IMG/VR virus record: IMGVR_UViG_2562617039_000002
Coordinates: 1,278-65,277 of that record
Length of the DNA: 64,000 nt
DNA from: a virus
Lineage: Duplodnaviria; Caudoviricetes
Direction: 5' to 3' (one strand)
How positions within the stretch are numbered: position 1 is the stretch's first letter; every line of letters begins with the position of its first letter. Position numbers and translations under genes: made by a program. The notes below the pieces were generated by a model. That model was not told where the DNA came from. It was given only the letters and a program-made list of their open reading frames with translations, and did not search any database. Positions 3,688 to 62,676 of this stretch are shown here, piece by piece.

Positions 3688-4974
3688 TCAGGCTGCCGCA
3701 CGGCTGGGCTTGTTATCATTCGCGGCCACCGGCATACGCGCGGCGCCCATTACCCGGGCGGCCGACAAAATCACTCGCCCGTCTTCGCCATAGTTCTTGT
3801 GGTAAGTGATTACTTTGGCGGAGCGGCCAGAAAGCCAGTTTGAACCATACGCATCTGGAGCGGCTAGTGTCTCGTGCTGTTCGACTTTCATGAGGTCGGT
3901 CGTTCGCAGTTCGTCAGCATGACGGTGGCCGGTGTGAGCGTAACTGTATTTTGTGCGGCCGTAGATCTCGCGGTACTTGCCGACCATGATCGAATCCACG
4001 TTTTTAGTCCCGCGACGATGGCCGTGGTGATAGAATAACGAGACGTTTCCGTGCTCAATGACGGAGTAGGTCCCCGGGTTCGTATCGAAGTTGACGCGGG
4101 GCTCGTCCTCATAAAACGCAGCGAAAGATTCACGAAGCCACACCTCCCCGGCGGGATCGTGATTTGCATCGCACATGATTACGTCCACTTGCTCGTGCTT
4201 TTCGAGCAGCATCCTCACAACGGTGCGGATGATACGGATTGCGGCGCGCACCATCTTTGGATACCGGCTATCGCTGTCCAAAAGGTGGCCGTGTTCCGGC
4301 GTCAGACTCTTGAATGAATCGTAGTGCAGAAAATCGCCTAACTGAGCGAAGACCGCACGCCTGGCGTTAGGAGATTGGGCAATAGCTGCGGCAAACCAGT
4401 CGAGAATTAGTTGTTCCCCGATCCTCAAATCGTAATCGCCCGCCCCGGTTTCTTCATTCCACGCAAGGGCGCCCAAGTGATGATCGGTAATTGTATACTG
4501 GTTCAGCAAGTCATCCGCAGTATGCGTAGGCGGGAGGACGGGCTTTGCTCGCGGGAGTTCATCTTTGAAGCCTTGCAAAGCTGCCGACATCGCTTCGGCG
4601 CGAGCCTTATCGTCAGCCCGCTCCATGATGTGCTGCGTAATCACCCGACCTTCGGCATTAACGAGCGTCGTCTTGCCTTTGACGGCAAGGCCAGCCGTTG
4701 GCTCGTAAGCCGGGCCAGCCTCTTTCGTCTGGCGCATGTAAGTGCCGTTCGGCGTCTCGGTCAGGCTTTTGATCGCATAGCCGGGCAATGTCGGTGACGG
4801 ACCCAACAGCCCAATCTCAGCGGCCCGCTTTATGCTTTCGTGGAACGCCGACTTCTTGATGCCAAGCGCAGCGGCAGCCTTAACCAGCGTACCGTGCTCG
4901 CGGTAAGCCTCGGCACGCCGCAGGAGTTCTTCGTGTGAAAGGCGCGCACCCGCGCCCTGTCTGTCATGGGACAT
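3688..4974 (-). CDS. Calcineurin-like metallophosphoesterase with N-terminal HTH
   Basis: Motifs TDHHLG, GDFLH, ANHD, HHGH, GHRH; start M44 of the track ORF after AACACGAGGAG. Confidence 0.85.
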   Translation of the reverse strand: MSHDRQGAGARLSHEELLRRAEAYREHGTLVKAAAALGIKKSAFHESIKRAAEIGLLGPSPTLPGYAIKSLTETPNGTYMRQTKEAGPAYEPTAGLAVKGKTTLVNAEGRVITQHIMERADDKARAEAMSAALQGFKDELPRAKPVLPPTHTADDLLNQYTITDHHLGALAWNEETGAGDYDLRIGEQLILDWFAAAIAQSPNARRAVFAQLGDFLHYDSFKSLTPEHGHLLDSDSRYPKMVRAAIRIIRTVVRMLLEKHEQVDVIMCDANHDPAGEVWLRESFAAFYEDEPRVNFDTNPGTYSVIEHGNVSLFYHHGHRRGTKNVDSIMVGKYREIYGRTKYSYAHTGHRHADELRTTDLMKVEQHETLAAPDAYGSNWLSGRSAKVITYHKNYGEDGRVILSAARVMGAARMPVAANDNKPSRAAA

Positions 4975-5151
4975 ACAGTCTCCTCGTGTTTGGTTGGTAG
5001 CCGACTCGCGGCGCGGATTGGTCGTCCGATAGTGAAAAGAGAATGAGTCTCGAGATGAGATGTCAAGCGGGAATAAGAAAGACGCCGCGTAACCTTCAGG
5101 CAAGGTTCATCTCCCAGCTTCTGTTTTGAGGATATGGAAGAGGAGTAATCA

Positions 5152-5331
5152 ATGAACGAAGACCGGAGGCGTGAGCGCCGTGGGCGCCCGAGAAACCCGA
5201 TTGAAAAGCTCAGTATTTCCATTCGGTTGGAAGCGGAATTGGTGCGCCGGATCCAAGCAACTGATCCCAACTGGCGTGAGAATATTGCCGATCTGGTCAG
5301 GCGGGAGTTTCAGTTAGAAGATACGAAATGA
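5152..5331 (+). CDS. BrnA-like antitoxin / RHH protein (59 aa, not in ORF track)
   Basis: MNEDRRRERRGRPRNPIEKLSISIRLEAELVRRIQATDPNWRENIADLVRREFQLEDTK; GAGGAG RBS; GRP..K.SISIRL...W BrnA signature. Confidence 0.7.
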   Translation: MNEDRRRERRGRPRNPIEKLSISIRLEAELVRRIQATDPNWRENIADLVRREFQLEDTK

Positions 5332-5431
5332 TCGGCGCCGTACTGGTCCCCATGGTGAGCGGCGCAGAAGGAAGGATGGAATGTCTCGATAAATGTGGTG
5401 TTAATGGAGCGGTGGGAAAAACGATTCCGGG

Positions 5432-6175
5432 GTGGCTAAAGTGCAGGAAATTGATTGGTTCGCGGAAATTTCAAAGTACATCGGGATAGTAGTTGCAGCG
5501 GGTGGCGGCGGAGCTGCAGTTGTATTCGGTGTTTTTCAAGCGTGGGGTAAGGGATGGCTTGATAATCATTTCAACAGGCGGCTTGAAGAGTTTAAGCACG
5601 AACAAACCAAAGAGATCGAAAGGATGAAGCTCAAGGTCAGCACAGTATTCGACAGATCGGTTCGGCTCCACCAGCTTGAATTTGAAGCGCTTCCCACATT
5701 GTGGGAGAAGCTGTTTGAAGCTTACAAGGAGTGCGCGAAATTTATTGCACCATTTCGACAATATGCCGATATAGCAAGGATGAATAACGAAAAACTTACT
5801 TCTTACCTTGTCGAGATCGGATATAGTAAAATCGAAATAGAAATTATAAATGATTCTGATGACAAAGAACAATCATTTGTTCGATTTACGGAAATAAAGA
5901 ACTTTAATAAAGCCTCCGACACGTACAATTCATTCCGTGAATATTTTCAAAAAAAATCTGTCTTCTTAGATAAAGATCTAAAAGATAAAATCGACAGTAT
6001 CTCCGCTTTAACTCGTGCTGCCCTCTATGAGCAACACGATAATCTAATAGAGCGCTATGGAAAGATGGAGCGATCAAATATAAAGGCTTTTCAAGATCGC
6101 GCAAATGGACTGATGGATGAGATCGAAGCTCTCGTTAAGCAGCGACTTTGGGATGCGACCACTGCTCAGGTTTAA
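5432..6175 (+). CDS. AT-rich hypothetical protein with N-terminal transmembrane helix and coiled coil
   Basis: 247-aa ORF, GTG start, hydrophobic residues about 17-37. Confidence 0.75.
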   Translation: MAKVQEIDWFAEISKYIGIVVAAGGGGAAVVFGVFQAWGKGWLDNHFNRRLEEFKHEQTKEIERMKLKVSTVFDRSVRLHQLEFEALPTLWEKLFEAYKECAKFIAPFRQYADIARMNNEKLTSYLVEIGYSKIEIEIINDSDDKEQSFVRFTEIKNFNKASDTYNSFREYFQKKSVFLDKDLKDKIDSISALTRAALYEQHDNLIERYGKMERSNIKAFQDRANGLMDEIEALVKQRLWDATTAQV

Positions 6176-6240
6176 TGACAACCTTGCTTTTTCCTACTTT
6201 CACGCCATCCGGCTGCATCAGTTTGCTAGCTTGCGTCAAC

Positions 6241-6270
6241 AAAAACCCCGCCGAAGCGGGGTTGTTTTTT
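6241..6270. terminator. Bidirectional intrinsic terminator
   Basis: AAAAACCCCGC-CGAA-GCGGGGTTGTTTTTT between convergent genes. Confidence 0.9.
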
Positions 6271-6451
6271 AAGAAGCCTTAAGTTTTGCTAACTCATCTC
6301 GAAGAGTCTTTGAAAAAGCTCTGGTACCTAATCCCACAGTTTTACGAGTTGCTTTTTCTAAAACATCTTTCTGTTCAACGAGAGACGACGAACCGCGCGT
6401 CTTGTCTTTTCGACCGGTAGCAGCTTCCTTTCTTTCAAGCATCGTCAGCAT
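6269..6451 (-). CDS. Small basic hypothetical protein (60 aa)
   Basis: GGAGG RBS before ATG 6451; overlaps the 3' end of the NTN hydrolase gene. Confidence 0.55.
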   Translation of the reverse strand: MLTMLERKEAATGRKDKTRGSSSLVEQKDVLEKATRKTVGLGTRAFSKTLRDELAKLKAS

Positions 6452-30401: not shown

Positions 30402-31613
30402 TTAAGCAGCCGCGATCTTGTGGTAACGCAGGGCCGTCGGATCGGTCACGCCGCCGCCAACGCGCTTCGTGGTGTAGAACTGCACGAACGGCTTGTTGGT
30501 GTACGGATCGCGAAGGATGCGAATACCCGTGCGGTCAACCACGAGATAACCGCGCTGGAAATCACCGAAGACAACCGGGATGGCGTCAGCGGCGATGTCC
30601 GGCATTGCAGCAAGCTCGCTGACCGGGAAGCCGAGGATAGTTGCAGGCTGGCCAGAAACCAGACCCGGCTGCCAGATGTAATTGCCCTGACCGTCCTTCA
30701 GTTTACGGATGGCGCCCTGCGTCTTGCGGTTCATAGTAAACCGCGCATTCGGAGTGCGCTCACTTGGCAGGTCGTAAACCAGATCAATGAGGCCGTCGGT
30801 CGTAAGACCGGCTGCGTCACCGCTATTCACCGTTGGGATTGCGCCCCACGGATGCGAAGCCGCAGTCGTGTAGGTCAGCAGCCCCTTCGGCTTGTCGGTG
30901 CCGTTGCCGGAAACGAACGCGATACCTTCCTGATACGCGAACTCAGTCTCGACTTCACCGGCAAGCCAGTTTTCGAGGTTGATTTCCGAATCATCCAGCA
31001 AGCGCTGCGTTGCAGCGGGATTGGCGTAGATCTCGCCGGTGTTGAACTTCACCTCGGCGAACTTTGCAGCCGGGGTTTCAGGACGCGCAGCGGATTCACC
31101 TACCCAGCCCGACGCGGTAGCGCGGTCGTTGTAGAGCTTGGAGAAGCCGTTGCCAGAAATCTGAATGACCGAAGCGATACCGCGCATCGGAGAAACGATC
31201 TTCAGCTTGTCGGTAATGGTGCGGTCCCATTCGGTCGGAGCCGTATAACCGCCGTCTTCAGGAACGGCGACGCTCATCGCGGCCTGTGGGTTGGCCTGAA
31301 TGAAGGCGTCAATGCTTGCCTCATCGCCCTTGCGGAAGAAGCGGTCGAATGCCTTGCTATACTCGGCGTTCTTGATATCGCGAGCCGGGTGGGAGGCACC
31401 AGCGGTCTGGAGAGCTGCAAGCTTCTGCGCTTGTTCATCGAGGGCAGCCTGAAGGTCGCTTACAGTGGCGTTGATGCGATCGACTTTTTCGGTGCGAACG
31501 ACATCTTCCGTGCCCTTCTTTACGTCATTAAGTGCTGCGCTGTGTTCTGCCTTGAACGCTTCAAATGCGCGGCCCTGCGCTTCAATGAGCGCCTTGATTT
31601 CATCGGGTTCCAT
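30402..31613 (-). CDS. Major capsid protein, HK97 family
   Basis: DGGYTAPTEWD, WVGE, FGDF..GY.VVDR, TKRVGG. Confidence 0.95.
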   Translation of the reverse strand: MEPDEIKALIEAQGRAFEAFKAEHSAALNDVKKGTEDVVRTEKVDRINATVSDLQAALDEQAQKLAALQTAGASHPARDIKNAEYSKAFDRFFRKGDEASIDAFIQANPQAAMSVAVPEDGGYTAPTEWDRTITDKLKIVSPMRGIASVIQISGNGFSKLYNDRATASGWVGESAARPETPAAKFAEVKFNTGEIYANPAATQRLLDDSEINLENWLAGEVETEFAYQEGIAFVSGNGTDKPKGLLTYTTAASHPWGAIPTVNSGDAAGLTTDGLIDLVYDLPSERTPNARFTMNRKTQGAIRKLKDGQGNYIWQPGLVSGQPATILGFPVSELAAMPDIAADAIPVVFGDFQRGYLVVDRTGIRILRDPYTNKPFVQFYTTKRVGGGVTDPTALRYHKIAAA

Positions 31614-36464: not shown

Positions 36465-36540
36465 TGGTGCCCTAGCGAGGAATCGAACCCCGGACCATCC
36501 GCTTACAAGGCAGCTGCTCTCCCATCTGAGCTACACGGGC
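36465..36540 (-). tRNA. tRNA-Thr(UGU), two acceptor-stem mismatches
   Basis: Cloverleaf, loop CTTGTAA, GGTTCGATTCC, encoded CCA. Confidence 0.85.
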
Positions 36541-36543
36541 GAT

Positions 36544-36619
36544 TGGTTGCGGGCATCGGGATCGAACCGATCAGATCCGGCTTATGAGACCGGCGAGCAC
36601 ACCAGCGCTCTCGCCCGCT
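36544..36619 (-). tRNA. tRNA-Met(CAU), initiator-like
   Basis: Loop CTCATAA, unpaired 1:72 (A:A), GCCCGCAACCA 3' end. Confidence 0.88.
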
Positions 36620-37653: not shown

Positions 37654-38454
37654 CTACGCAGGTTGTGCGATATTCCAGATATTTCGATACGCCAGTGGAT
37701 GAAGCTCCAGATCGTCCATAGCGCCCTGAACCGCAGCTAGCCCGCGGAAAACAAGAGACCTTCCCGCTGCAGTTGCCTGCTTGTGCTTGAAGCCGTCTTT
37801 CTCGCCTATTTCGGCCAGCGTCTGCCCGCCCAGCACCGCATCCTCGAACGGCTCGATGAGCGGCCCAAGCCTTGACCGCAGATAGGCAAGTATCGGTCTT
37901 GTATCAATTTTCTCGAGCAGCAGATCGTCCGTGAATTTCAAACTGAGGCTCGGAGTTTTACCGGTCTTTGGAATTGGCATCGTGCCATCGTCGTTCTCGA
38001 AGTAAGCATCGACTTTGACATTCACCTTGCGCATTGCAGGAAGGGCATAAGCTCCTTTGCTTTTGCGCAGCTTGCCGGAATATTCGATTTCTCCACCTTT
38101 CACGCCGCCTTCCCAGTTTCGTGCGGCAGCGGCCTCTACATCTTCGACGCCCTTTAGGCGTTTGCTTTCTTGAGCAGCGTGCAAGCCTGCATCGTATCCG
38201 TAGTCTTGGCCCTTAAGCGGCTCGGCCTCGGCTATGGCTACAAGGCGCCGGTATCGCATAACTAGCTCGATAAAGCAGTGTAGCTTGTCTCGGCGCAAAA
38301 CCGCCAGCAGTGGGAAATCCTCGTTATCATTCGCAGGAACGGCAGGGTCTCCGATAGACTGGCGCTGTTTGATGCGTCGCAATTGCGTGGCCATTGCCTT
38401 GGTTTCCTGCTTGGCCCGTGCTGCTCGGTCCAGATAAATCACATTTCCCATCAA
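37654..38454 (-). CDS. Putative late transcription regulator (Q-like position, C-terminal HTH)
   Basis: TLAEIG......A..AGR.LV..GL HTH-like segment; last gene before the late operon. Confidence 0.55.
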   Translation of the reverse strand: MMGNVIYLDRAARAKQETKAMATQLRRIKQRQSIGDPAVPANDNEDFPLLAVLRRDKLHCFIELVMRYRRLVAIAEAEPLKGQDYGYDAGLHAAQESKRLKGVEDVEAAAARNWEGGVKGGEIEYSGKLRKSKGAYALPAMRKVNVKVDAYFENDDGTMPIPKTGKTPSLSLKFTDDLLLEKIDTRPILAYLRSRLGPLIEPFEDAVLGGQTLAEIGEKDGFKHKQATAAGRSLVFRGLAAVQGAMDDLELHPLAYRNIWNIAQPA

Positions 38455-38654
38455 GCTGCCTCCTCATTCAGAAGATCCGACAGGTACACGCCGTCGACCG
38501 CATAGAACTCGAATTCTTCCCGGCGCTTAATTGCCGCCGTCTGCCAGCCTCTTAGTTCCAAGTCTCGTGCATATGGAGATGATGAATGCTGGTCTTCATC
38601 GATCGGGCAGTTGTCATTCGCGGCGAAATATTTGTCTTTCAGTTTCTGCTTCAT
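38451..38654 (-). CDS. Hypothetical protein
   Basis: ATGA-coupled on both sides. Confidence 0.65.
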   Translation of the reverse strand: MKQKLKDKYFAANDNCPIDEDQHSSSPYARDLELRGWQTAAIKRREEFEFYAVDGVYLSDLLNEEAA

Positions 38655-42177: not shown

Positions 42178-44361
42178 TCAAACCGCCCGCACAAACGATG
42201 TCGTTTTCCGCTGGATCGGATCGCGCTCCTCGACTTTTGCCAGGAAGCCTTCCTTGAACAGCGCCTTGGTAATGAGGTTGGTCCGCTTCTTCTGCACCTC
42301 GTCGTCGACATCCAGCCCCAGCGCATATGCCACGGCGTGCCCAACCCAGTCTTTTGCCTGCGGCGCCTGCTTATACATGCCGCCGTTTACAGCGCCACGG
42401 ATAGCTTCTTTTTGTTCATCGGTCAGCCCTTCTGCCACTTCCTCGCTCGACGGCCAATGCCATTCAGTGACGACCGGCGCATGGTCCTGCGGCTGGGTCA
42501 GCCCACGACCATTGCCCAATGCGACGCTTTCGATATGCCGCCAGTCCAGCCGGTGTGACAGCGGCGTAAGGTTCGACTTGCCGTATGTGATCGAGAAGTA
42601 GCCGAACCGATCCATACCGGGAATGCCCGCCTCATTGGCTTGCGCTTCTGACATACGATTAAGCACGCGCACCGAACGCGCTGCACCGATCAGAGCCACA
42701 GCGCCGCGTGCGTCTTCGACGGTAGCCTCGCGGTCGCTCACCTTGCGCAGGTGGTGCACGATGTCGATGGAGCAGTTCGTATAGTCCGCGATCTGCGCCC
42801 AGAGTTTCGCAACCTTGTCGATAGCACCGTTGTCGTTTTCGTTGACCTGGTGCGTCGACACGAACGGATCGACGATCATCACGTCGATCCCATTGGCAAG
42901 GATGGTTTCGGCAACTGCCTCGACGATCGGCTCCTGGATTTTGACGCCTTTCTTGTCGTCGATGGCAACGACAAGTTCCTGCTCACGGCCACTGTCGAGG
43001 AACAGATGACCGTCTATATCTTCCGGCTTCAGGTTGAAGTGGATGCACGCCGCCATTATGCGTCGCTCAAGCTCGTCGCGCGGATCTTCCACGTTAAAGA
43101 GCCAGACCTTGAGCCGGCGCGGCGGCTTGACGCCGTTTAGAGCCTTGCCAGACGCCATCGCGAGCGCTTCCACGATGCTGTTCGCAGTTTTGCCAAGGCC
43201 GCCCGGTGCAACCGTCACCGAGACGTACTTGCGGATGAAATGCCGACCAAAGGCAAACTCGCGGCGTGGCAGTGTTGACGGATCTTTCCACTGGAAGGGT
43301 GTGGCTGCGAGGATGGGTTGGTCGGCGGGTTCTTCTTCGATGGGCGGCAACTTCTCTGGATCAATCTGGACGGTCGTCACTAGTTCTTCGGGGTTGACCT
43401 CTCCGCCCTCCACCTTCGCCCGCGCGTTATCGAGCATGCGTGTAATGTCCACGAGCTTGGTATTGTCGTTGACGGCTTCTGGTGCCTGACGCGGATGCAT
43501 CTTGCCAGCCTTCAGCCCATTGTCGATCGTTTTGCAGCAACGTGGGAAGTCCCTGCCCCAGCCGCGCGCCACATCTTGCAGCAAGGCCCGCGCTTCGGAT
43601 TCCGACAAAGCCCCGGCGCCGACGAACGTGCCCAGCCGGAACGCCGCGTCGTTCAAGCGATTGTTGCGGTTGCCCATCGGTTCCATGGCTAGGTCGTCGA
43701 GCTCGGACTGCACCGCGCGCTCGACGTATCGGTCATTAATCGTGCCAGACACCGACGGCGCCTGGTACATGGTCGTGCTGTCGTATGACCGTGGCAAGAC
43801 AAGCTCCAGCAGCCAGTCCGGCGCACCGACCGGCTCCATATCGACCAGCCAGCGGTAAGGCTGGCCAATAGCAGGCACGCTGCCAGCCGCGATGACATAG
43901 CCACCGTCGCCACGAACATCGATGCCGGCACCCAATGCGCCACGATTGCGGACGCCAGCCTTGTGTTTGAAAAAGTAATGTCGGCCCCCGCTCGTGGTTT
44001 CAGCGGTAAGCGTCGCGGGCAATGCGCCGTGCTCGGCTTCCAAAGCCGCAAGCGTGTCTGGCCCGCCGTGCTTCGGATCGATATCCAACACCCACGCCCC
44101 GATAGGCGCCCCGGTCGGCACGCCGACCATTGCAGCTGGGTTTCGCCGCCAGAGTTCACGAACAATTCGCTCATTCAGCGTCGCGCCGCGGAACCCGTTT
44201 GAGGTCAGCGGAGTTTTGGTGGCGAGGATTTCGATAAGGCCGTCCTCGTCGACGAATTCCTCATCGGCGGCACGGCATGGAAATACAGGCCAGTTACGCG
44301 CCGTGTAGGACAGAGCGACGTCGAGCATGGGGTCGGTATCCGGTAATACAGATTGCTGCAT
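42178..44361 (-). CDS. Bifunctional primase/polymerase fused to AAA_25 (RepA-like) helicase
   Basis: WPVFPC, VLDID.KHGG, TTSGGRHYFF, Walker A APGGLGKT, IVDPF, IVHH. Confidence 0.92.
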   Translation of the reverse strand: MQQSVLPDTDPMLDVALSYTARNWPVFPCRAADEEFVDEDGLIEILATKTPLTSNGFRGATLNERIVRELWRRNPAAMVGVPTGAPIGAWVLDIDPKHGGPDTLAALEAEHGALPATLTAETTSGGRHYFFKHKAGVRNRGALGAGIDVRGDGGYVIAAGSVPAIGQPYRWLVDMEPVGAPDWLLELVLPRSYDSTTMYQAPSVSGTINDRYVERAVQSELDDLAMEPMGNRNNRLNDAAFRLGTFVGAGALSESEARALLQDVARGWGRDFPRCCKTIDNGLKAGKMHPRQAPEAVNDNTKLVDITRMLDNARAKVEGGEVNPEELVTTVQIDPEKLPPIEEEPADQPILAATPFQWKDPSTLPRREFAFGRHFIRKYVSVTVAPGGLGKTANSIVEALAMASGKALNGVKPPRRLKVWLFNVEDPRDELERRIMAACIHFNLKPEDIDGHLFLDSGREQELVVAIDDKKGVKIQEPIVEAVAETILANGIDVMIVDPFVSTHQVNENDNGAIDKVAKLWAQIADYTNCSIDIVHHLRKVSDREATVEDARGAVALIGAARSVRVLNRMSEAQANEAGIPGMDRFGYFSITYGKSNLTPLSHRLDWRHIESVALGNGRGLTQPQDHAPVVTEWHWPSSEEVAEGLTDEQKEAIRGAVNGGMYKQAPQAKDWVGHAVAYALGLDVDDEVQKKRTNLITKALFKEGFLAKVEERDPIQRKTTSFVRAV

Positions 44362-45487: not shown

Positions 45488-45804
45488 AACGGCGCCTCCT
45501 TCAACGCTTCCCGCATCCCTCGCCCGCACCCTTCCCATGCGGCTTTGACCAGCATGCGCGCTTCCAGTTCGTCCATTTCCTTAAGGTCGGTTTTCTGTAT
45601 GGCCTGCAAGTATTCCCCAACCGACTCGACGCCGGTATCAAGGGCGCGCAGTTCGTAAGGATCTAGCCGACGCCGATGCCGAATATGCTCGGCGATGTCG
45701 GCGCATTCCTTGCACAGCCAGCGGATTGGCTCGCGGTCTACCTGCACGCCGAGGCCGGCGGCGTGGCGGGCGCAGACGTGGCAGATGTCGGCGTCAGGCT
45801 GCAT
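45484..45804 (-). CDS. Hypothetical Zn-finger protein (DUF6511-like)
   Basis: C.VCAR...WLC..C, ends EAPF. Confidence 0.65.
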   Translation of the reverse strand: MQPDADICHVCARHAAGLGVQVDREPIRWLCKECADIAEHIRHRRRLDPYELRALDTGVESVGEYLQAIQKTDLKEMDELEARMLVKAAWEGCGRGMREALKEAPF

Positions 45805-46831
45805 TTGCAGTCTCCGCGCAGTTGTCGTTGGCCACGTCGAAGATGTTGTCTTGCCTGTTATCAAGCGCCGCAATGTTCCGCCCAGCCTGCAAAAAGTAGG
45901 ACGGCTTTAGCTCGAACCCGATACCCTTACGCCCGGCAGCAACCGCGCCGTATACCTCACTACCGATTCCGAGAAATGGCGTCAGCACGACGTCGCCGGG
46001 ATTGCTCCACAACTCGATGCAACGCTCAATAACGTCCAACTGCAAAGGCGAAATGTGCTGCTCGTCCTTCTCGTCGCGTGCCGACCGATACTGCAGGGTG
46101 CGTGTCTGGTTGATGTCCATCCAGACTGGCGATGCATAACGCTGCCAGACTTCAATCGAGAACCATTTCTCGGCCCGTGCCCGATCTTCACCAGATGCCA
46201 ACCTGTCAGCTAATGCCGTCGGTTCGTTGCCATAGCCGACATAACGATCGAACATGCCATCAACCGGGTCAGGATTATCGCCCGGCTTACGGAACATCAG
46301 CATATAGTCAGCAAGTCCCTGCCCGCTGATCGTGCTATCCTTGGTGATCTGCTTATGCAGAAGACGGATGGATTTCGTGCGCTGCTGCGCGACAACTGGA
46401 TCTTTCCAGATGCAAACTTCACTGTGGAAGATCCAACCTGCATCTTCGTATGCGCGCACCACTTCACCGCGGAAGTCGCGCATGCCGATATGGCCATGTC
46501 TGATCTTGCTGGTTGGCAACTGCATGCAATGCACTGCGTGGATTCTGCCCGGCATGGTCACGCGTAGCAATTCTTGGATCAGGTAGGCGTAGTGCTCCCA
46601 AAATCCATCGCCGTCGTTGTTGCTAATGTCGCGATCGGAATTGCTGAACCGATAAAGCCCCTCGAAAGGCGGGCTATGGATGCCAAAATGCACCGTTCCA
46701 GTCGGTACGCCGCGAATAAGTTCGCATGCGTCACCTTCATAGATGGCGTAATTGTCGGTGATGACTTGATTGATGGCTTTCACCGCCGCAATTTTAGTTT
46801 CGATAGATTGGTCGGTAATTCTCTTGCTCAT
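45794..46831 (-). CDS. DNA methyltransferase, N4-C/N6-A beta class
   Basis: Motif IV SPPF before motif I LTPFLGIGSE; HISPLQLDVIERC. Confidence 0.9.
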   Translation of the reverse strand: MSKRITDQSIETKIAAVKAINQVITDNYAIYEGDACELIRGVPTGTVHFGIHSPPFEGLYRFSNSDRDISNNDGDGFWEHYAYLIQELLRVTMPGRIHAVHCMQLPTSKIRHGHIGMRDFRGEVVRAYEDAGWIFHSEVCIWKDPVVAQQRTKSIRLLHKQITKDSTISGQGLADYMLMFRKPGDNPDPVDGMFDRYVGYGNEPTALADRLASGEDRARAEKWFSIEVWQRYASPVWMDINQTRTLQYRSARDEKDEQHISPLQLDVIERCIELWSNPGDVVLTPFLGIGSEVYGAVAAGRKGIGFELKPSYFLQAGRNIAALDNRQDNIFDVANDNCAETANAA

Positions 46832-49604: not shown

Positions 49605-51329
49605 CTAGAACGGAATATCGTCATCCAATACGTCAGCCAGCCCGGCAGATACTCGACCGTAATTTGATGCCGGCGCATTGTCGTTGCTAGCCTCTGGCAC
49701 GTTGTCATTCGCAACACCCGCAATGGCGTCAACAACTTCCCAGTATTTGCCGTTCGGCTTGACCACGATCTCGGCGGTCGGCAGCAGCTCGTTCTGGCGC
49801 TCCATGAATTCCAGCACGGTTTTCGGGAACGGTGCCTGACCGCCATGCTTTCGCCACCACCTGTCAGACTTTGACTTAAAGAAGCCGGTATGGGCTGGGC
49901 CGAGCCATTCGTTGATTGGCGACATACCAACCCAATAAGACACCTTCACGCTGTCCTGCTTGCCGCCCTTGCCTTCGTGGTATGCAAATGTGCGGCGCTC
50001 CACCTGGCGGGTGCTGGCGTTGTCCTTCGACAGCATCGGCACGTCTTCCGCCTGCGCAGATATCTTCGGCGTTTCATCGACTGGGAATTCATATCCGCAA
50101 TCCGGACAGGTGTGGAGCGAGGCGTGGATCAGTGAGCCGCAGCCTACTAGACCACGATCGTCAGGCTCTTGCGGACATTGCTTCACTGGCGCTTCCCCGT
50201 CACCCTTTTTCATTCCGGGTGGCGTAACCGCATCGATTGGCCCATGCTTGCGAACAACGCCCGCGAAGTCCAGAAACAGGCAGTTCTCCTTGCCGGGATA
50301 AAGGCGCAGGCCACGACCCGCCATCTGGACATAAAGGCCCGCTGATAAAGTCGGGCGACAAAATGCGACCAGATCGATAATCGGTAGGTTCGTGCCGGTT
50401 GTCAGCACCGAGTTGTTCGTCAGCGCCCGGATCTTGCCGGCCTTGAAATCAGCCAGAATCCGGTCCCGCTCTCCGGTCGGGGTATCTCCAGTCACAGTCT
50501 CACAGCTAAATCCCCGGCCCCGAATCTCGTCCCGCATATGCCGGGCATGCTCAACGCCGCTGCAAAAACAAAGCCAAGCCTTTCGCTCAGCACCCGACGC
50601 CGTGCCATATGTGACGATCTCATCCACTACCGAAGCAGTGATGTCGTCCTTGTCGATGGCTGCCTGCAACGCGTTCTGTTTGTAATCGCCGCCCTGCTTC
50701 CCGACGCCTGACAGATCGAAGGCTGTTGCCATGCCCTTTGAAATCGGCCGACAAAGATAGCCTTCCTCGATCATTTCGCCGATCGGCTTTTCAAAGCAGA
50801 TGTCGTCGAAAAGTGCGCCGTCACCTTCAGTCAAAAGCCCCTCGCCCAAGCGATAAGGCGTGGCCGTGAGACCGACCAGCTTCAGGTCTGGATTGATGGC
50901 GCGCAGGCCATCGATCAGCTTGCCGTACTGCGTTTCCGAATTCCGTGGCATTAGGTGTGCCTCATCGACCAAAACGACGTCGATGTGGCCGATCTGCTCC
51001 GCCTTATTTGCGATGGTCTGCACGCCGCCGAATACGATCTGCGCCTTCGCATCACGCCGTCCTACACCAGCCGAGAATATTCCCGCCGGAGCGAAGGGCC
51101 AGATGTTCAGCAGCTCTTGGTAATTTGACAGGATCAGCTCGCGTACATGAGTGCAAACCAATACGCGCATGTCTGGCCAGCCTTCGATAAGTTCTTTGCA
51201 AATCGTACCCAGCACGAGGCTCTTGCCGCCGCCCGTAGGAAGCACGATAAGAGGCGAGCCGGGTTGTTCGCGCCAGTAGTCGTAAAGGCCGTCAACCGCG
51301 GCGCGTTGATAGTCTCTTAGATGGAGCAT
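49605..51329 (-). CDS. DEAD/DEAH SF2 helicase (RadD/YejH-like) with Zn finger
   Basis: LRDYQ, PTGGGKS, DEAH, GLTATPYR, QMAGRGLR; ends DDDIPF. Confidence 0.92.
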   Translation of the reverse strand: MLHLRDYQRAAVDGLYDYWREQPGSPLIVLPTGGGKSLVLGTICKELIEGWPDMRVLVCTHVRELILSNYQELLNIWPFAPAGIFSAGVGRRDAKAQIVFGGVQTIANKAEQIGHIDVVLVDEAHLMPRNSETQYGKLIDGLRAINPDLKLVGLTATPYRLGEGLLTEGDGALFDDICFEKPIGEMIEEGYLCRPISKGMATAFDLSGVGKQGGDYKQNALQAAIDKDDITASVVDEIVTYGTASGAERKAWLCFCSGVEHARHMRDEIRGRGFSCETVTGDTPTGERDRILADFKAGKIRALTNNSVLTTGTNLPIIDLVAFCRPTLSAGLYVQMAGRGLRLYPGKENCLFLDFAGVVRKHGPIDAVTPPGMKKGDGEAPVKQCPQEPDDRGLVGCGSLIHASLHTCPDCGYEFPVDETPKISAQAEDVPMLSKDNASTRQVERRTFAYHEGKGGKQDSVKVSYWVGMSPINEWLGPAHTGFFKSKSDRWWRKHGGQAPFPKTVLEFMERQNELLPTAEIVVKPNGKYWEVVDAIAGVANDNVPEASNDNAPASNYGRVSAGLADVLDDDIPF

Positions 51330-53382: not shown

Positions 53383-54423
53383 TTAGACCCTCATCGGCAT
53401 AAGCACGCCCGTCCACTCGCCCTCGCCCTTGACGACGGCAGGCGAGCCTGCATCGCCGAGAGCAAAGCGCACGTTTGCTTCATCCAACGCGCCAAGCATG
53501 TCGTTGACGTACCGGGCGTTAAAGCCGATTTCCAAAGGCTCGCCCTCGAATTCAATCGAAACTTCATCGCTAGCCTTGTCAGCCAGCATCAGTCGCAGCA
53601 CATCGCCGACCGCGAATTTCACGGCTCGCGATTTGTCATCCGCAACCGCGGCGACACGCTCGACGGCCTTCATGAGCGCCTGCCGGTCGACGCTAAGCAC
53701 GTTCGCATTGCCGGTTGGAATGACGCGCACATAGTCAGGGAACGTGCCGTCGATCAGCTTGGAAGTGATAACCGTTGAGCCAGACGTGACGCGCACCTTG
53801 TTCTGCGACAGTTCAACGGTAACCGCGCCCTTCGGTAGTAACCCGACCATCTTACGCGGCAGGATCACACCGTAGTCCAAGTCGCCGGTGGGGCCGACAT
53901 TGCGCATCAGCCGGTGCCCGTCAGTTGCGACAGCAACCAAGCGGCCGTCAACGGCATGCAGATAAACGCCATTGAGGTAATAGCGGGTTTCTTCGGTCGA
54001 AATGCAGTGCACACAAGGCGCAACAAGCGCAGCCAGATCCAGCTCAAGGGTTGTGTCGAACTTCCCTGCACTGAAGGACGGAAAGTCCTCAACGGGCAAA
54101 ACGTCGAGCTTGTAACGGCTGCGACCAGACGCGACGGTAAGGCGGCCGTCATCTAAGGCAAGCGATATGTCGCCCGTCACGCGCTTGGCGATATCCGCAA
54201 GCATCTTGCCGGGAACGGTCACGCTACCGGGCTGGCAGTCGAGCACCGGCAGACTGGTCGTTATCTCCACGTCCAGATCAGTGCCTGTCAGGCGCAACTG
54301 GCCGTCCTCGACCGCCAAGAGCACGTTGGCGAGAATGGGGATTGTGTTTCGGCTTTCGATAGCACGGTTGACGGTTGCCAAGGCGTGCGCGAGCTGTGAG
54401 CGGTCAATGCTGACTCTCATCAA
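53383..54423 (-). CDS. dnaN: DNA polymerase III beta sliding clamp, phage-encoded
   Basis: TIPILANVL, TGTDL, ETRYYLNGV, VATDGHRL, LIDGTFPDY.RVIP, IGFNARY, VLMPMRV. Confidence 0.95.
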   Translation of the reverse strand: MMRVSIDRSQLAHALATVNRAIESRNTIPILANVLLAVEDGQLRLTGTDLDVEITTSLPVLDCQPGSVTVPGKMLADIAKRVTGDISLALDDGRLTVASGRSRYKLDVLPVEDFPSFSAGKFDTTLELDLAALVAPCVHCISTEETRYYLNGVYLHAVDGRLVAVATDGHRLMRNVGPTGDLDYGVILPRKMVGLLPKGAVTVELSQNKVRVTSGSTVITSKLIDGTFPDYVRVIPTGNANVLSVDRQALMKAVERVAAVADDKSRAVKFAVGDVLRLMLADKASDEVSIEFEGEPLEIGFNARYVNDMLGALDEANVRFALGDAGSPAVVKGEGEWTGVLMPMRV

Positions 54424-54480: not shown

Positions 54481-55032
54481 TTAGCCCCAAGGTCGCTTCT
54501 TGCCTGCCGCAGCAGCCGCTGGCGCTGGCTTGTTGCTGTTAGCCGCAGCCGGTCGGTTGTCATTGGCCGGGCGGGCCTGCGCTACGGGCTGGTTGGCGTC
54601 GATCGAAGGCTGGGGGACGTTGCCCTCATCGGGGAAGTAGTACTTCTTGATCTCGGCGCGAGCCGGGTATTGGCCGTCCTTGGAAGGCTTTCCGAGACCA
54701 ATCTTTGCCGTAAACGCCTTGAAGTGCAGTTCTTCGGAATCCTCGACTTCCGAGACGCCGATCGCTCGGCAAAGGCTCGCGAACTGACGCTGGCCGATCT
54801 CTTGCGCCTGCGCGTTCTTGTGTTCCAGATTGTAGAAATTGAAGACCTTGCGGCCCTTGTATTCCTCAGGGCGAAGAACCGTCATCGTTGTCTTGAGGCC
54901 GGTACCGTTTGCGCCTTCCTTGACCTCCGACGCCTCGATTTCCAGTTCATAGTCGCCGTTCGGCAGCTCTTCGTAGTCCCGCTGCTCCGTATCGTGAGCA
55001 GTCGCATCAAATCTGCTGGCTAGTTTTGCCAT
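54481..55032 (-). CDS. DUF669-family single-stranded DNA-binding protein
   Basis: LPNGDYELEI, GRKVF..YNL, EIGQRQFASLCRAIG. Confidence 0.8.
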   Translation of the reverse strand: MAKLASRFDATAHDTEQRDYEELPNGDYELEIEASEVKEGANGTGLKTTMTVLRPEEYKGRKVFNFYNLEHKNAQAQEIGQRQFASLCRAIGVSEVEDSEELHFKAFTAKIGLGKPSKDGQYPARAEIKKYYFPDEGNVPQPSIDANQPVAQARPANDNRPAAANSNKPAPAAAAAGKKRPWG

Positions 55033-55075: not shown

Positions 55076-55318
55076 TTAAGCCTTCGCCCGATGAATAGCC
55101 GGGCGGAAGAACCCACCGATGAAACCAAGCGAAGCGCCGATCTGCCACATCGCAAGGCCCGCCGCGTTGATGCCAACGGCGGCAAGGAACGCATGGATCG
55201 TTTCTGCGAAAAACAGGCCCACGACCCAGCCGACGAACGCGCCACCGAGAACGCCGATGAGCGGTGCGAAGAAGAGGATGGCCGCGATTGCGACAAGGCC
55301 AGCTAGAGCTTTTTCCAT
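55076..55318 (-). CDS. Small membrane protein
   Basis: Highly hydrophobic, GG.F.GW.VG, GA.LGFIGGFF. Confidence 0.75.
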   Translation of the reverse strand: MEKALAGLVAIAAILFFAPLIGVLGGAFVGWVVGLFFAETIHAFLAAVGINAAGLAMWQIGASLGFIGGFFRPAIHRAKA

Positions 55319-56127
55319 TAGGCGGCCTCCCTCTGGTCATTGTCGTTGGCAACGTCGAGGTATTTTGAAAGCTCCTCGAAGCCATGCCCCTGCCGATAAG
55401 GAATGGTGGCCGGTGCACCTTTCAACCGGTTCTTCGCCAAGAACCCGGCCCGCTCATCTGTATGGATGACGCGTTCTGCGCCAGACATCCCCTCTGGCTT
55501 ATTCTTCTTTTCGCCGCCGAAGCCTTCCTTCACTTGCTTTACGGACGTGCGGCGGTTGAGAAATAGAAGCGCCTTACAGTTTTCGATGACGAGATCGAGA
55601 GCCCTCTTCTGCAATTTCGGGCGATATCGATCATACGAATCCACAAGAGGATCATTGAACGACTTAGCTTCACTGTGCAGGATCTGAATTACAAACAGTC
55701 CTGCCCGGTTTAGCGCAGCGATAGCCTCGTGGTATTCTTTCCATTCGACGTCCGCGGCGAGGTAACCCTTGCCAAAAGCTGTCGGGGAGCCCTTGTCGTT
55801 GCTATCGATGGAATCCCATCCGTTTCGCGCGCAGGTCGCAGCCCAAACCATCGGCTCGATCTTATCGACCGAATCCAGAATGACAGTCTGAAATTCGTGT
55901 TCTTCGGTCAGAATTTCTCCGAAAGTATCCAGAAGGTCGCTGAACGAAGTGATTTCAGCACTTGGTAGGTCGATGCCGTCTGGCGGCTCCTCGCCTTCAA
56001 CATAAAGATAGATCGGCTTTGGGAACTCAGCAGCAAGACTGGTTTTTCCGACGCCGGGCGTGCCGTAAATGGCAATCGACGGTGGCGTCTTGCGTTTACT
56101 GGACTTCAATCTGTCAAAAACAGACAT
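55318..56127 (-). CDS. AAA_24 / Sak4-like ATPase (recombination)
   Basis: IYGTPGVGKTSLA, TVILDSVD, FLAKNR. Confidence 0.88.
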   Translation of the reverse strand: MSVFDRLKSSKRKTPPSIAIYGTPGVGKTSLAAEFPKPIYLYVEGEEPPDGIDLPSAEITSFSDLLDTFGEILTEEHEFQTVILDSVDKIEPMVWAATCARNGWDSIDSNDKGSPTAFGKGYLAADVEWKEYHEAIAALNRAGLFVIQILHSEAKSFNDPLVDSYDRYRPKLQKRALDLVIENCKALLFLNRRTSVKQVKEGFGGEKKNKPEGMSGAERVIHTDERAGFLAKNRLKGAPATIPYRQGHGFEELSKYLDVANDNDQREAA

Positions 56128-58422: not shown

Positions 58423-58424
58423 AG

Positions 58425-59911: not shown

Positions 59912-59959
59912 CTACGGCGGTCGGTTGTCATTGTCTGCGGGTCTGGGGGCCATCTTCAT
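59912..59959 (-). CDS. 15-aa leader peptide MKMAPRPADNDNRPP
   Basis: First ORF with a well-spaced RBS after PL; full AACACGAGGAG motif. Confidence 0.5.
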   Translation of the reverse strand: MKMAPRPADNDNRPP

Positions 59960-60091
59960 CTCCTCGTGTTTTCTGGTCGGTCAGCCTTGGGTTGGTACTA
60001 TCTGTCCGGTCGCGGAAGCTCCGGCTTCTCTTTGTGCAACTCATTCTCCTTTTCTGTGCTCCGGTCTTCTTTGGGCCGGTTGATGACAAAG

Positions 60092-60143
60092 GTTATATAC
60101 GCGATTCGTATTTTCGTCAACTCCTTACATACGTTTTTCGTAT
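60092..60143 (-). promoter_or_regulatory. Leftward lytic promoter with two operators (OL-like)
   Basis: TTGACG-N17-TATAAC (60120-60092); ATACG-N5-CGTAT at 60097-60111 and 60129-60143. Confidence 0.88.
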
Positions 60144-60159
60144 TTCCTACTGTGATTAC

Positions 60160-60186
60160 AAAAAAAGGCCGCTATAGCGACCCTTT
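60160..60186 (-). terminator. Terminator of cI
   Basis: AGGGTCGC-TATA-GCGGCCTT-TTTTT on the minus strand. Confidence 0.8.
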
Positions 60187-60206
60187 ACTACTATCCGATT
60201 AGCGTA

Positions 60207-60794
60207 TTAAAGCTGGCGCCAGAATTCCCGCGAAATGCGTATCACCAGCTTGCGAGCCCAAACGATCCGGACATCTTCTATGTCTGGTGCATTCGTACTA
60301 GATAACGTGAATAGCCCAGGCTCCGATCCGCGGCGGATCGTTTTGATTAGCATCCTGTCGTCCTCAAGGCGAACCATGCACGTCTGGCCAAGCGCATCGT
60401 CCGCCGTCAACTCCTTGCCCGAATAGGCAACTAGGTCGCCATCCTCGAATATCGGATACATGCTGTCGCCCCGTACGATAGCGCCGACCGTACCCTGCGG
60501 CAGCGCCGCCGCTACCGAAACCTCATATAACGGATCACCATCATCGATTGGATATACAGCCGCACCCGCCCCGACATAGCCTAGCACTGGAATCACAGAT
60601 TTGCGATCCGGCATAGGCAGCCCGCTCAATCGGCTCATGACGACCATTTCATGAGCTTTAAGCTGACGCTTGCCTTTGAGTATTTCGCTAATGGTAGGCT
60701 GACGACCGAGACCGAGCTCTTTCGCTACTTGCTCTTGGGTGAGCCCGCTGGCTTCTAAGGCCTCCGCAAACCACTTGATTACTTCGCTATCCAT
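60207..60794 (-). CDS. CI-like repressor (XRE HTH plus S24 peptidase), probably leaderless
   Basis: GLTQEQVAKELGLG.QPTISEI..GKR; VRGDSMYP Ser and LIKT Lys. Confidence 0.92.
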   Translation of the reverse strand: MDSEVIKWFAEALEASGLTQEQVAKELGLGRQPTISEILKGKRQLKAHEMVVMSRLSGLPMPDRKSVIPVLGYVGAGAAVYPIDDGDPLYEVSVAAALPQGTVGAIVRGDSMYPIFEDGDLVAYSGKELTADDALGQTCMVRLEDDRMLIKTIRRGSEPGLFTLSSTNAPDIEDVRIVWARKLVIRISREFWRQL

Positions 60795-60800
60795 AAAAGC

Positions 60801-60880
60801 GTTATCGCATAATCGTATATTTATGTCATATACGCTTTTCGTATTTCCGGCTTGACCTTTTAATACGTTTATCGTATACA
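60801..60880. promoter_or_regulatory. Divergent PRM/PR region with operators (OR-like)
   Basis: PR TTGACC-N17-TATACA (60852-60880); PRM ATGACA-N17-GATAAC on minus; ATACG-N5-CGTAT at 60830-60844 and 60863-60877, degenerate copy 60804-60818. Confidence 0.85.
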
Positions 60881-60954
60881 ACTCCCCAACAGCACGAAGA
60901 AGCGACCGACGCCGATCTGCTGACCACCCACCAAAACACGAGGAGACTGCAATT

Positions 60955-61218
60955 ATGGAACCCACCAAGAGAAGAAGAAGCCCCAAGCCTCGCCCGAATG
61001 AAATCATCGGCGGCGGATTCTTTGTATTCCGCCGCGGTAAGAAGACTGGCCGGGTTGGAGTCTTCACCACCATGCCATACGAACACGGCTCGTTTGAGCA
61101 AGCTTTGGCCGAGGCGACGCGCCTCGCTGCCCTGTGCCCTGGCGAGACGTTCGAAGTTTTCCAGACGAGCGGCGCCGTAGCTTGCTGCACGCCGGTAGTG
61201 CTGGCGGAGGCTGCTTAA
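60955..61218 (+). CDS. Hypothetical early protein
   Basis: AACACGAGGAG RBS; no HTH. Confidence 0.8.
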   Translation: MEPTKRRRSPKPRPNEIIGGGFFVFRRGKKTGRVGVFTTMPYEHGSFEQALAEATRLAALCPGETFEVFQTSGAVACCTPVVLAEAA

Positions 61219-61219
61219 A

Positions 61220-61564
61220 ATGGAGCGGAACCCCACCACCGAGCTCGAAGCCGCGCCTCTCCCACGCGGACAGAAAAACATCGTCGACGCGCTGGCAGCG
61301 ATTTATCCGCGCCGCATTTACATCAACGACCTCGTCGACAACGTCTATGCTTTCGATCCGAACGGCGGTCCTGATGGCGCCCAAAACGTTGTGCGAGTGC
61401 AAATCAGTCGCCTCCGCAAGCTCCTGCCCTCGTTTGGCTGGACCATCCCGATGAACCATCGGGGCGCGGGCAATCACGGGTTTTATCGCCTCGAGCCAGT
61501 AGCCGCGAACGACAACGTACCGGCGGCGGAGCGGGCCGCAACAAACCGGAGGGCAGCAGCATGA
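61220..61564 (+). CDS. Stand-alone OmpR/PhoB-type winged-helix protein
   Basis: L...VY...P......NVVRVQISRLRKLL...GW.I......Y.L. Confidence 0.75.
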   Translation: MERNPTTELEAAPLPRGQKNIVDALAAIYPRRIYINDLVDNVYAFDPNGGPDGAQNVVRVQISRLRKLLPSFGWTIPMNHRGAGNHGFYRLEPVAANDNVPAAERAATNRRAAA

Positions 61565-61788
61565 ACCGCGCGCTCCTGGAAATGCTTGCCGACGACGAGT
61601 TCGAAACGGAAACCGACACACCAAAGGCCGGTAATGTCGAGCCTATGCGCCGCCCTGACTACAAGGCGAGGAAACATGGTCGCCCACAGCCGTGGCTGCG
61701 CTATGCGGCACGCGAAGCGGTCGAGATGACCGTCGTTGTAGCGTTTTGCATTGCTGTGTGCGGCGTTGGGTTGGGGTTATCCGCATGA
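61561..61788 (+). CDS. Small protein with C-terminal TM
   Basis: ATGA-coupled. Confidence 0.65.
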   Translation: MNRALLEMLADDEFETETDTPKAGNVEPMRRPDYKARKHGRPQPWLRYAAREAVEMTVVVAFCIAVCGVGLGLSA

Positions 61789-61896
61789 GGCACGAAAGAT
61801 AGCGACGGGGCGCTAAAGCCCCCGAACCTCCAAGAACAACGGCCTTTGCGCAATTGGCGCCACGGCTTTTTGCCCCCACCAACACGAGGAGACCCC

Positions 61897-62157
61897 ATGT
61901 CCAGATCCATCACGCACGCCGTTATGGCACCCATCCTGACCGCCGCCGAATTTCAGCAACAAGGCACGACCGCCGCGCAGGTCTTATCGATTTCGAAGGC
62001 AGTGCGCGCTCTTGGTTATCACTCCGAGGCTGAGACGCTGCGCGACACCGCTTTCGAACTGGCGCGCATTACCGGCGTTCGGTTCCGCTACGGCGCTGCG
62101 CGCCAGCGTCGCAGCCCGGCCAACGACAATCGCCGCCGGATGCGGAGGGCGGTGTGA
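61897..62157 (+). CDS. Hypothetical protein
   Basis: AACACGAGGAG RBS before ATG 61897. Confidence 0.75.
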   Translation: MSRSITHAVMAPILTAAEFQQQGTTAAQVLSISKAVRALGYHSEAETLRDTAFELARITGVRFRYGAARQRRSPANDNRRRMRRAV

Positions 62158-62263
62158 TGGTGGTGGGTGAACACGCCGTGAAGGCGGCGCAGAAAGCGTA
62201 TAGAGAATGCGATGGTGTTAGCACGGAAAGCCACCGCGCCGCACTGCGGGAAAGGGAGTGAGG

Positions 62264-62485
62264 ATGTCAGCGCGAGACTACAAGCGGGTATTTATCGTCA
62301 TCGCGGCGCTCGTAGCCATATACCTCGCCTACCAGCAGATTCCGCACATTCACATCGGAGAGCGTGCGCAAGGCAGCTACGAGGGCGGCACCGCATCTGA
62401 CGAGGATGTTTCGAAATCGGTTCGAGAGGCGCAGGAAGCCGCGGATAAGGCAAGCCGTGCCGGCCCGGCAGAAAGCAGCAAGTAA
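62264..62485 (+). CDS. Small membrane-anchored protein
   Basis: N-terminal TM; GGGAG RBS. Confidence 0.65.
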   Translation: MSARDYKRVFIVIAALVAIYLAYQQIPHIHIGERAQGSYEGGTASDEDVSKSVREAQEAADKASRAGPAESSK

Positions 62486-62676
62486 TGGCGTCATACACCT
62501 TTGCTGACACCGAACGATGGTTGGACGCCATAGCCGGTGTCATTGCCTGCTTTCCGGAAACAGAACAGAATCTCCTGCCACTTTATGAGCGCGTGGAACG
62601 AATGCAGCGCAGTCTGACTGCAAACGATAATATTCGCGATCGTATTAAATCACGGCTACGTCGAACGGCAGCGTGA
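62485..62676 (+). CDS. Hypothetical protein convergent with integrase (excisionase position)
   Basis: TAATG coupling; overlaps the integrase 3' end; no Xis motif recognised. Confidence 0.65.
   Translation: MASYTFADTERWLDAIAGVIACFPETEQNLLPLYERVERMQRSLTANDNIRDRIKSRLRRTAA

Follow-up and report, generated by a model that had tools for sequence, protein, structure and literature searches.

What does a four-residue peptide, ANDN, do in ten predicted proteins of a single temperate phage? The question is raised by a stretch of 64 000 nucleotides (hereafter the window), which makes up most of a 65-kb provirus record (IMGVR_UViG_2562617039_000002 in IMG/VR). The host of this phage belongs to the Ochrobactrum/Brucella family (Brucellaceae); close relatives are found in Ochrobactrum, Brucella and Falsochrobactrum genomes, and a more distant one in Tianweitania. 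An earlier note on this DNA, made from its letters alone, had pointed to ANDN as the beginning of the alphaproteobacterial tag encoded by transfer-messenger RNA (tmRNA; ssrA), and had proposed that the phage pre-tags its early enzymes for turnover by the adaptor SspB and the protease ClpXP, as a timer, or else titrates SspB. The analysis given here leads us to a related reading, to which we assign a probability of about 0.6: the ANDN tails are a genome-encoded mimic of the ssrA tag that is read by the SspB and ClpXP of the host.

ANDN is over-represented in the phage proteome

Six-frame translation of the window gives ANDN exactly 10 times, each time in the coding frame of a predicted gene; all ten sites listed in the earlier note are at the right coordinates, and no further ANDN exists in any of the six frames. 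Searching the DNA with the pattern GCNAAYGAYAAY returns the same 10 sites, where dinucleotide shuffles lead one to expect 0.35 (largest value 2). Composition predicts 0.165 copies for the set of 101 open reading frames (ORFs) (Poisson P 4e-15), and 5000 shuffles of the residues within proteins never give more than 3 (mean 0.18). No other tetrapeptide of the proteome is as strongly over-represented: the runner-up (P 1.5e-5) trails ANDN by about ten orders of magnitude, and the coding scores are positive for all 10 genes that encode it. The shorter peptide NDN is enriched ten-fold in frame (16 versus 1.6 expected), and the near variants reported earlier are present: SNDN in the SRAP protein, YNDN in the DUF7768 (NDT-like) protein, VNDN in the primase and a second SNDN in a helicase.

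The codons of the ten copies differ at third positions only, as the earlier note had remarked, so it is the peptide that is under selection, and an element in the DNA or RNA is disfavoured. All bearers in the window are non-virion proteins, and none of the 10 copies falls in the virion/lysis block at 6.2–36.1 kb (chance P 0.0014), again in line with what had been noted. Virion proteins do not escape the motif in every phage: in the related phages 16-3 and TM3_3_14B, a complete ANDN...AA tag closes the protein coded after the terminase.

Position of the motif in the proteins that bear it

Three enzymes carry a full imitation of the tag at their C-termini, all encoded on the minus strand. The exonuclease (phrog_704; 3688–4974) has ANDN at 3712–3723 and ends in PVAANDNKPSRAAA, with 11 residues from the alanine of ANDN to the C-terminus; the DNA methyltransferase (N6_N4_Mtase; 45794–46831) has it at 45821–45832, 12 residues from the end (DVANDNCAETANAA); and the AAA_24/Sak4-like ATPase (55318–56127) at 55339–55350, 10 from the end (DVANDNDQREAA). 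The Pfam domain of the methyltransferase stops at residue 316 of 345. An alignment-based AlphaFold model of the AAA_24 protein has a mean predicted local distance difference test score (pLDDT) of 84.6 and a last helix reaching residue 256; residues 261–269, which comprise the last three residues of the motif and the tail, have pLDDT values below 50. Orthologs of the exonuclease (in phages 16-3, NV1.1.1 and TM3_3_14B and in a Falsochrobactrum ovis prophage) keep AANDN with other codons and end in RRVA, and the ortholog in phage RHph_X2_26 (31% identity) is without ANDN.

Three small proteins encoded on the plus strand carry the motif close to their C-termini. A 114-amino acid protein with a weak winged-helix match (61220–61564) has ANDN at 61505–61516, 19 residues from its end (AANDNVPAAERAATNRRAAA). 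A 63-amino acid protein with a weak helix-turn-helix match (62485–62676) has it at 62620–62631, 18 from the end (TANDNIRDRIKSRLRRTAA); its gene is convergent with the integrase gene and has a low coding score (6.4), which makes it the least certain gene call of the set, and the protein is possibly an excisionase-type regulator. An 86-amino acid protein (61897–62157), to which a protein of the F. ovis prophage is homologous (48% identity), has ANDN at 62119–62130, 12 from an end (SPANDNRRRMRRAV) that reads RRAV and lacks Ala-Ala. The distance from head to end is thus 10, 11 and 12 in the three enzyme tails, 12 in the protein ending in RRAV and 18–19 in the other two small proteins. Tail peptides of the bearers include VAANDNKPSRAAA and DVANDNDQREAA, and the tag-like protein ends quoted in the earlier note are correct.

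The remaining four copies, all on the minus strand, are in other settings. The superfamily 2 (SF2) helicase (ResIII and Helicase_C domains; 49605–51329) has only the head of the tag, with ANDN at 49701–49712 and SNDN at 49677–49688 in its tail; its orthologs retain one or two (A/S)NDN copies and an acidic tip. The DUF669 protein, which resembles single-stranded DNA-binding protein (SSB; 54481–55032), is likewise head-only: ANDN (54556–54567) is 28 residues from the end in an Ala/Pro-rich tail, beyond a Pfam domain that stops at residue 123 of 183, and orthologs have one or two ANDN. A 67-amino acid protein (38451–38654) has ANDN near its N-terminus (38610–38621) and a C-terminal EEAA, and a 265-amino acid protein (37654–38451) has it at residue 40 (38323–38334); the F. 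ovis prophage encodes a homolog of the latter in which AANDN precedes the conserved part.

The five enzymes with Pfam domains all have the motif past their last domain, and wherever a domain or a model exists the motif sits outside it, in a tail or a linker. Of the near variants, SNDN (729–740, plus strand) is in the tail of the SRAP protein (60–767), YNDN (3488–3499, minus strand) is ahead of the DUF7768 domain of a protein with an Ala-Ala end (3131–3634), and VNDN (43462–43473, minus strand) is in the primase (42178–44361), in the stretch that links its Prim-Pol and AAA_25 domains. A further variant, DNDN, occurs without a terminal Ala-Ala in a 15-codon ORF (MKMAPRPADNDNRPP; about 59915–59962, minus strand) behind a strong ribosome-binding site (AACACGAGGAG); this ORF could encode a leader peptide or a decoy.

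C-terminal Ala-Ala accompanies the motif

Proteins ending in Ala-Ala are also in excess: 14 of the 94 predicted proteins do so, versus 1.2 expected (P 3e-11), and 12 of these 14 are encoded outside the virion block. The end is found in six of the ten ANDN bearers versus six of the 45 other non-virion proteins (P 0.004); the four bearers without it are the helicase, the DUF669 protein, the 265-amino acid protein and the 86-amino acid protein. Of the clear virion proteins just one has this end, the HK97-type major capsid protein (30402–31613, minus strand), which closes with HKIAAA.

It had been considered that the coupling of stop and start codons might explain these ends in full. This is right in part, as nine of the 12 non-virion Ala-Ala ends are at GGAGG-GCN-GCN-stop/start junctions, but coupling fails as the full cause. 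None of nine coupled late genes ends in Ala-Ala, the third positions of the Ala-Ala codons vary freely (all four bases are used), and densely packed phages that are free of ANDN have no excess of such ends (two of 84 proteins in RHph_X2_26, two of 23 in L119 and one of 27 in L120), which together indicate that the constraint acts on the peptide.

The same association is seen within a single protein family. Among 120 orthologs of the Sak4-like ATPase (48–99% identity), the tail that follows the conserved ELSKYF is hypervariable in both length and sequence. Ala-Ala ends are found in 86 of the 120 and a tail ANDN in 29, and 28 of those 29 also have the Ala-Ala end. The distance from ANDN to the end is 10–17 residues in these orthologs, mostly 11–13, and 12–13 in native tags.

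The motif matches the tag of the host

Brucellaceae hosts have tmRNA tags of the form ANDN(K/N)A(Q/K)GYALAA. Tags predicted by ARAGORN in four host genomes are ANDNKAQGYALAA (two genomes), ANDNNAKGYALAA and ANDNYAEARLAA; as the earlier note had supposed, they begin with ANDN and end in Ala-Ala, and the phage motif is identical to the first four tmRNA-encoded residues in all four genomes. An sspB gene is present in each of the four, a few kilobases from ssrA, and that of Falsochrobactrum codes for a homolog of two proteins with solved structures, Caulobacter SspB (PDB 2QAS/2QAZ; E 5e-34) and an Agrobacterium protein. No SspB or tmRNA gene was found in the phage. In the phage proteins the motif is encoded in frame by the genes themselves, rather than added co-translationally by tmRNA at a stalled ribosome.

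The ssrA tag binds SspB, which raises the affinity of the tag for ClpX (PMC3985003), and AANDENY is the SspB-binding part, which is kept in engineered DAS+4 tags (PMC9382460). The head has SspB as its only known reader, and the terminal Ala-Ala is read by ClpX (PMC3985003, PMC9382460).

The earlier note had also called for a comparison of ANDN counts with shuffled and host proteomes, and the excess is found in the phage, with the host at chance level. In the Falsochrobactrum genome (3.3 Mb), the DNA pattern occurs 24 times (11 times on the 65-kb prophage contig, once in ssrA and 12 times elsewhere), and the reversed pattern, used as a control, occurs 25 times. Of the 12 sites outside the prophage and ssrA at most four to five are in long open frames, and none is tail-like. 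The pattern likewise clusters in the prophage of a second host genome. Given this chance-level background, the ANDN excess belongs to the phage and not to the host proteome.

Head and Ala-Ala end are gained and lost together

We compared five phages: the window, the Falsochrobactrum prophage (F. ovis C14), Rhizobium phage 16-3, Sinorhizobium phage NV1.1.1 and Rhizobium phage RHph_TM3_3_14B. ANDN is the top tetrapeptide in all five and Ala-Ala ends are in 12–18-fold excess. The residue before ANDN is alanine in 42 of the 73 copies and proline in 18; an alanine in this place resembles the one that tmRNA donates. In 19 of the 73 copies ANDN is 10–14 residues from the C-terminus and in none is it 4–9 residues away. 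The last residue is alanine in 18 of these 19 (10 Ala-Ala and six Val-Ala ends).

Across 14 phage genomes or fragments, the ANDN excess and the Ala-Ala excess are found together or not at all. Both are present in the five phages above and in L118, G005 and G007 (G008 shows them weakly); RHph_X2_26, L119 and L120 have neither, and L122 has no ANDN and Ala-Ala ends near chance (two versus 0.4 expected). RHph_X2_26, a Sinorhizobium phage, has the same module of helicase, DUF669 protein, AAA_24 protein and exonuclease, with no integrase match, no ANDN and no Ala-Ala excess. Head and Ala-Ala end are, on this evidence, an optional add-on to the module that is gained or lost as one. Among rhizobial phages, four that bear an integrase have 2–20 copies of ANDN, and one without an integrase match has none, which is suggestive of a link between ANDN and the temperate lifestyle (n = 5). 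The gene for a 110-amino acid protein (2802–3134, minus strand), near the exonuclease gene, is found in all five ANDN-rich relatives and in neither RHph_X2_26 nor RHph_Y3_1.

The motif is independent of phage lineage. A scan of viral contigs for AANDNxPA gave at least 120 matches, and from these we took three complete phages, G005, G007 and G008, with 13, nine and six copies of the pattern (0–1 in controls). The only protein that G005 and G007 share with the phage of the window is a helicase of 25% identity; ANDN is nevertheless their top tetrapeptide, and they have 11 and eight Ala-Ala ends, respectively, versus 1.0 expected. The two cases with seven residues from head to end are in these two phages. 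Recurrence of the motif in phages without shared proteins makes a host factor the simplest candidate for its reader. The motif is also host-specific: gammaproteobacterial phages with a related terminase (in Klebsiella, Serratia and Stenotrophomonas) and Paracoccus phage Shpa have 0–1 ANDN, a small sample that fits this specificity.

A proposed tag mimic and its alternatives

In the mechanism that we favour, the head, with the consensus (A/P)-A-N-D-N-x-P, would imitate the part of the tag that is read by the adaptor SspB, and would be placed in the tails and linkers of early proteins of replication, recombination, DNA modification and regulation. A head followed by about 6–9 residues and then by a C-terminal Ala-Ala or Val-Ala would make a complete tag of native length, and host SspB would tether a protein with such a tag to ClpX, for ClpXP to unfold and degrade. 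Early proteins would be short-lived as a result, whether made by leaky expression in a lysogen or left over once the early phase of infection has passed. Where the head stands alone (in the helicase, the SSB-like protein and those with N-terminal sites), the protein may bind SspB but would not be a direct C-terminal substrate; it might be delivered through other degrons or partner subunits, or compete for the adaptor. We infer SspB binding and ClpXP degradation, and likewise a purpose, which may be that of a timer, a decoy or a stress sensor. The bearers (nucleases, helicases, a methylase, an annealing ATPase and, encoded beside the integrase gene, small regulators) fit a tag mimic, as a temperate phage would gain from keeping such proteins short-lived.

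The pre-tagging of early enzymes is accordingly upheld in part: selection on the peptide, the match to the host tag, the presence of SspB in the hosts and the Ala-Ala ends at about native length all agree with it. Several observations weigh against a tag mimic, or against turnover as its only use. Four of the ten bearers have the head but no terminal Ala-Ala, so pre-tagging for turnover is not the whole story. In the five phages more than half of the copies are head-only, N-terminal or internal, and proline stands two residues after the motif in 28 of 73 copies, where native tags have alanine. Relatives on the same host families can lack the motif entirely (RHph_X2_26). That the head would be the adaptor site in alphaproteobacteria as well is argued by analogy from the E. 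coli case. The nine of 12 Ala-Ala ends at coupled junctions leave some room for a constraint at the nucleotide level. The E. coli-type head AANDENY has only eight hits in all of IMG/VR, several of them in giant-virus bins, which is the chance level, in a search of limited power (the pattern has 14 fixed bases and needs glutamate at position 5); the covariation with the host's tag type that one would expect is therefore not demonstrated. Our confidence stays near the value given above on account of that proline, the number of head-only copies and the lack of an E. coli-type counterpart.

It is possible, though unlikely, that ANDN docks its bearers on another common hub, of host or phage, with no proteolysis involved, so that they are gathered, for example, at a replication/recombination factory and the identity with the tag head is a coincidence. 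Such docking would suit the fact that most bearers handle DNA, and that their tails also have motifs for other hubs (DDDIPF in the helicase, QPSLF in the SRAP protein and RPWG in the DUF669 protein); the majority of instances being head-only and the proline at position +2, unlike the tag, would also find a ready explanation. A coincidence of this kind must, however, account for an exact match to four residues of the tag with the alanine that precedes them (the prior is about 1 in 160 000 for a given tetrapeptide), and for the co-occurrence, genome by genome, of the motif with Ala-Ala ends at native spacing. The motif is moreover borne by small regulators and uncharacterised proteins, and its presence in phages that share no proteins excludes a common phage-encoded partner.

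We regard as doubtful the proposal that the motifs bind SspB mainly as decoys, which would saturate or divert the adaptor and ClpXP and thereby stabilise other substrates or blunt the quality control of the host. Many copies are head-only, abundant proteins (the SSB-like one, for example) can have copies in tandem, and the 15-residue leader peptide with DNDN and no Ala-Ala lies behind a strong early ribosome-binding site, all of which a decoy would accommodate. Complete tags with Ala-Ala at native spacing are nonetheless common and conserved, and would be superfluous for a pure decoy, and the leader peptide has the variant DNDN, not ANDN itself.

An extension of the tag mimic, which we put forward tentatively and think improbable as it stands, is that the early proteome is plugged into the trans-translation channel of the host. 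Competition with ssrA-tagged chains would make the lifetimes of the phage proteins report the load of stalled ribosomes, as a built-in sensor of stress by which the phage would settle on lysogeny, induction or lytic growth, and head-only copies and graded ends would tune the place of each protein in the queue.

Docking of clients on the phage's own DnaN clamp, in the way that clients of T4 gp45 dock through terminal peptides, can be rejected as very improbable. DnaN and the 110-amino acid protein are the only window genes found in all five ANDN-rich phages and in neither of two ANDN-poor ones, and every ANDN-rich locus related to this phage also has dnaN; but L119, L120 and L122 have the clamp and no ANDN, and the complete ANDN-rich phages G005, G007 and G008 have no DnaN in a search for which the window served as positive control. 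The canonical clamp motifs QPSLF and QGSLF are, furthermore, in use in these phages, and the clamp of L118 itself bears ANDN. Hardly any probability attaches to a signal in the nucleic acid, be it a site in DNA or a motif in RNA, or to a side effect of gene-junction sequence, in spite of the many Ala-Ala ends in GGAGG-GCN-GCN-stop/start junctions, since all 10 copies are in the coding frame, only third positions vary among the codons for Ala-Ala and for ANDN, the next start codon follows ANDN at anything from 17 to more than 500 nt, and neither coupled late genes nor packed ANDN-free phages have an excess of Ala-Ala ends.

Comparison with known systems

The nearest known element is the native alphaproteobacterial ssrA tag (ANDNKAQGYALAA and ANDNNAKGYALAA; AANDNFAEEFAVAA in Caulobacter), with the common head (A)ANDN and a terminal Ala-Ala. 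Complete phage copies are like it in length (10–13 residues) and in forming a free, disordered C-terminus. They differ in being encoded by genes and not trans-translated, and in not copying the middle of the tag; proline is common two residues past the phage head, and many phage copies are head-only, N-terminal or internal.

Phage proteins are known as substrates of ClpXP, namely lambda O, MuA and the Mu repressor. As in the reading that we favour, it is the ClpX(P) of the host that sets the lifetime or remodelling of these replication, transposition and regulatory proteins. Each has its own idiosyncratic signal, and we know of no SspB-binding head or proteome-wide motif described for them.

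Natural proteins with ssrA-like degrons for ClpX (C-motif 1, Flynn et al. 2003; M. tuberculosis anti-sigma factors, bioRxiv 10.1101/491043; E. coli, PMC10862746) share the Ala-Ala-type end. They copy the ClpX-binding end only, whereas the phage adds an adaptor-binding head across a set of proteins. In their modular build of a presumed SspB-binding head, a spacer and a tunable ClpX end, the phage tails are like the engineered DAS and DAS+4 tags (PMC9382460, PMC3064785), and the phage ends AA, VA, KA and NA resemble a graded series. The DAS tags are man-made derivatives of the E. coli tag; the phage design is natural and alphaproteobacterial. The SSB tip DDDIPF and the beta-clamp motif QL[SD]LF, both present in this phage, are also short linear motifs in the disordered tails of DNA-handling proteins; they differ from ANDN in sequence and presumably in partner, and ANDN is found on regulators and small proteins as well. 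No published description of ANDN tails in phages was found in the literature that we searched.

Other features of the phage

The window also codes for an HK97-type capsid, a large terminase, an integrase (62645–64000, minus strand) and a replication and recombination block with a Prim-Pol/AAA_25 primase, two SF2 helicases, a phage DnaN sliding clamp (53383–54420), the DUF669 SSB-like protein, the AAA_24/Sak4-like ATPase, the exonuclease, the methyltransferase, a VRR-NUC protein and the SRAP protein. Adjacent genes for tRNA-Thr(TGT) and tRNA-Met(CAT) (36465–36619, minus strand) lie between the terminase block and the early region. A search for near-identical phages had no match in the phage collection; by terminase, the closest isolates are Rhizobium and Sinorhizobium phages (62–72%). 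The record from which the window is taken and the F. ovis prophage are both 65277 bases long, with motifs at different positions, and their proteins are 87% (helicase) and 78–79% (DnaN) identical.

Other short motifs are found at the ends of several proteins. The C-terminus of the SF2 helicase (49605–49640, minus strand), LADVLDDDIPF, reproduces the acidic tip at the C-terminus of bacterial SSB and may recruit host proteins that interact with SSB to the helicase; the tips of ortholog helicases stay acidic-hydrophobic (DDEIAF, LEDVPF and DDEVPF). The DUF669 protein ends in KKRPWG (54481–54500, minus strand), which is kept in orthologs of 16-3-like and Brucellaceae phages (KKARPWG, KKRPWG) and in part in RHph_X2_26 (RKPWGKNRS), and resembles a separate tail motif. 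The SRAP protein, of the abasic-site peptidase family, ends in EAQPSLF, a canonical beta-clamp-binding motif, with SNDN before it; the phage has its own DnaN.

Significance

If the tails are what we propose, a whole class of temperate phages, to which prophages of the Ochrobactrum/Brucella family and Rhizobium phage 16-3, long a subject of study, belong, would leave it to a single adaptor–protease pair of the host how stable a tenth to a third of their non-structural proteins are, which would be a new and simple layer of phage gene regulation. They would also represent a natural modular degron design akin to DAS, and a source of species-matched degradation tags for alphaproteobacterial genetics. 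The tails would give a handle on the role of SspB in alphaproteobacteria beyond quality control, and on the means by which prophages prevent a build-up, in lysogens, of nucleases, helicases and methylases that would be dangerous.

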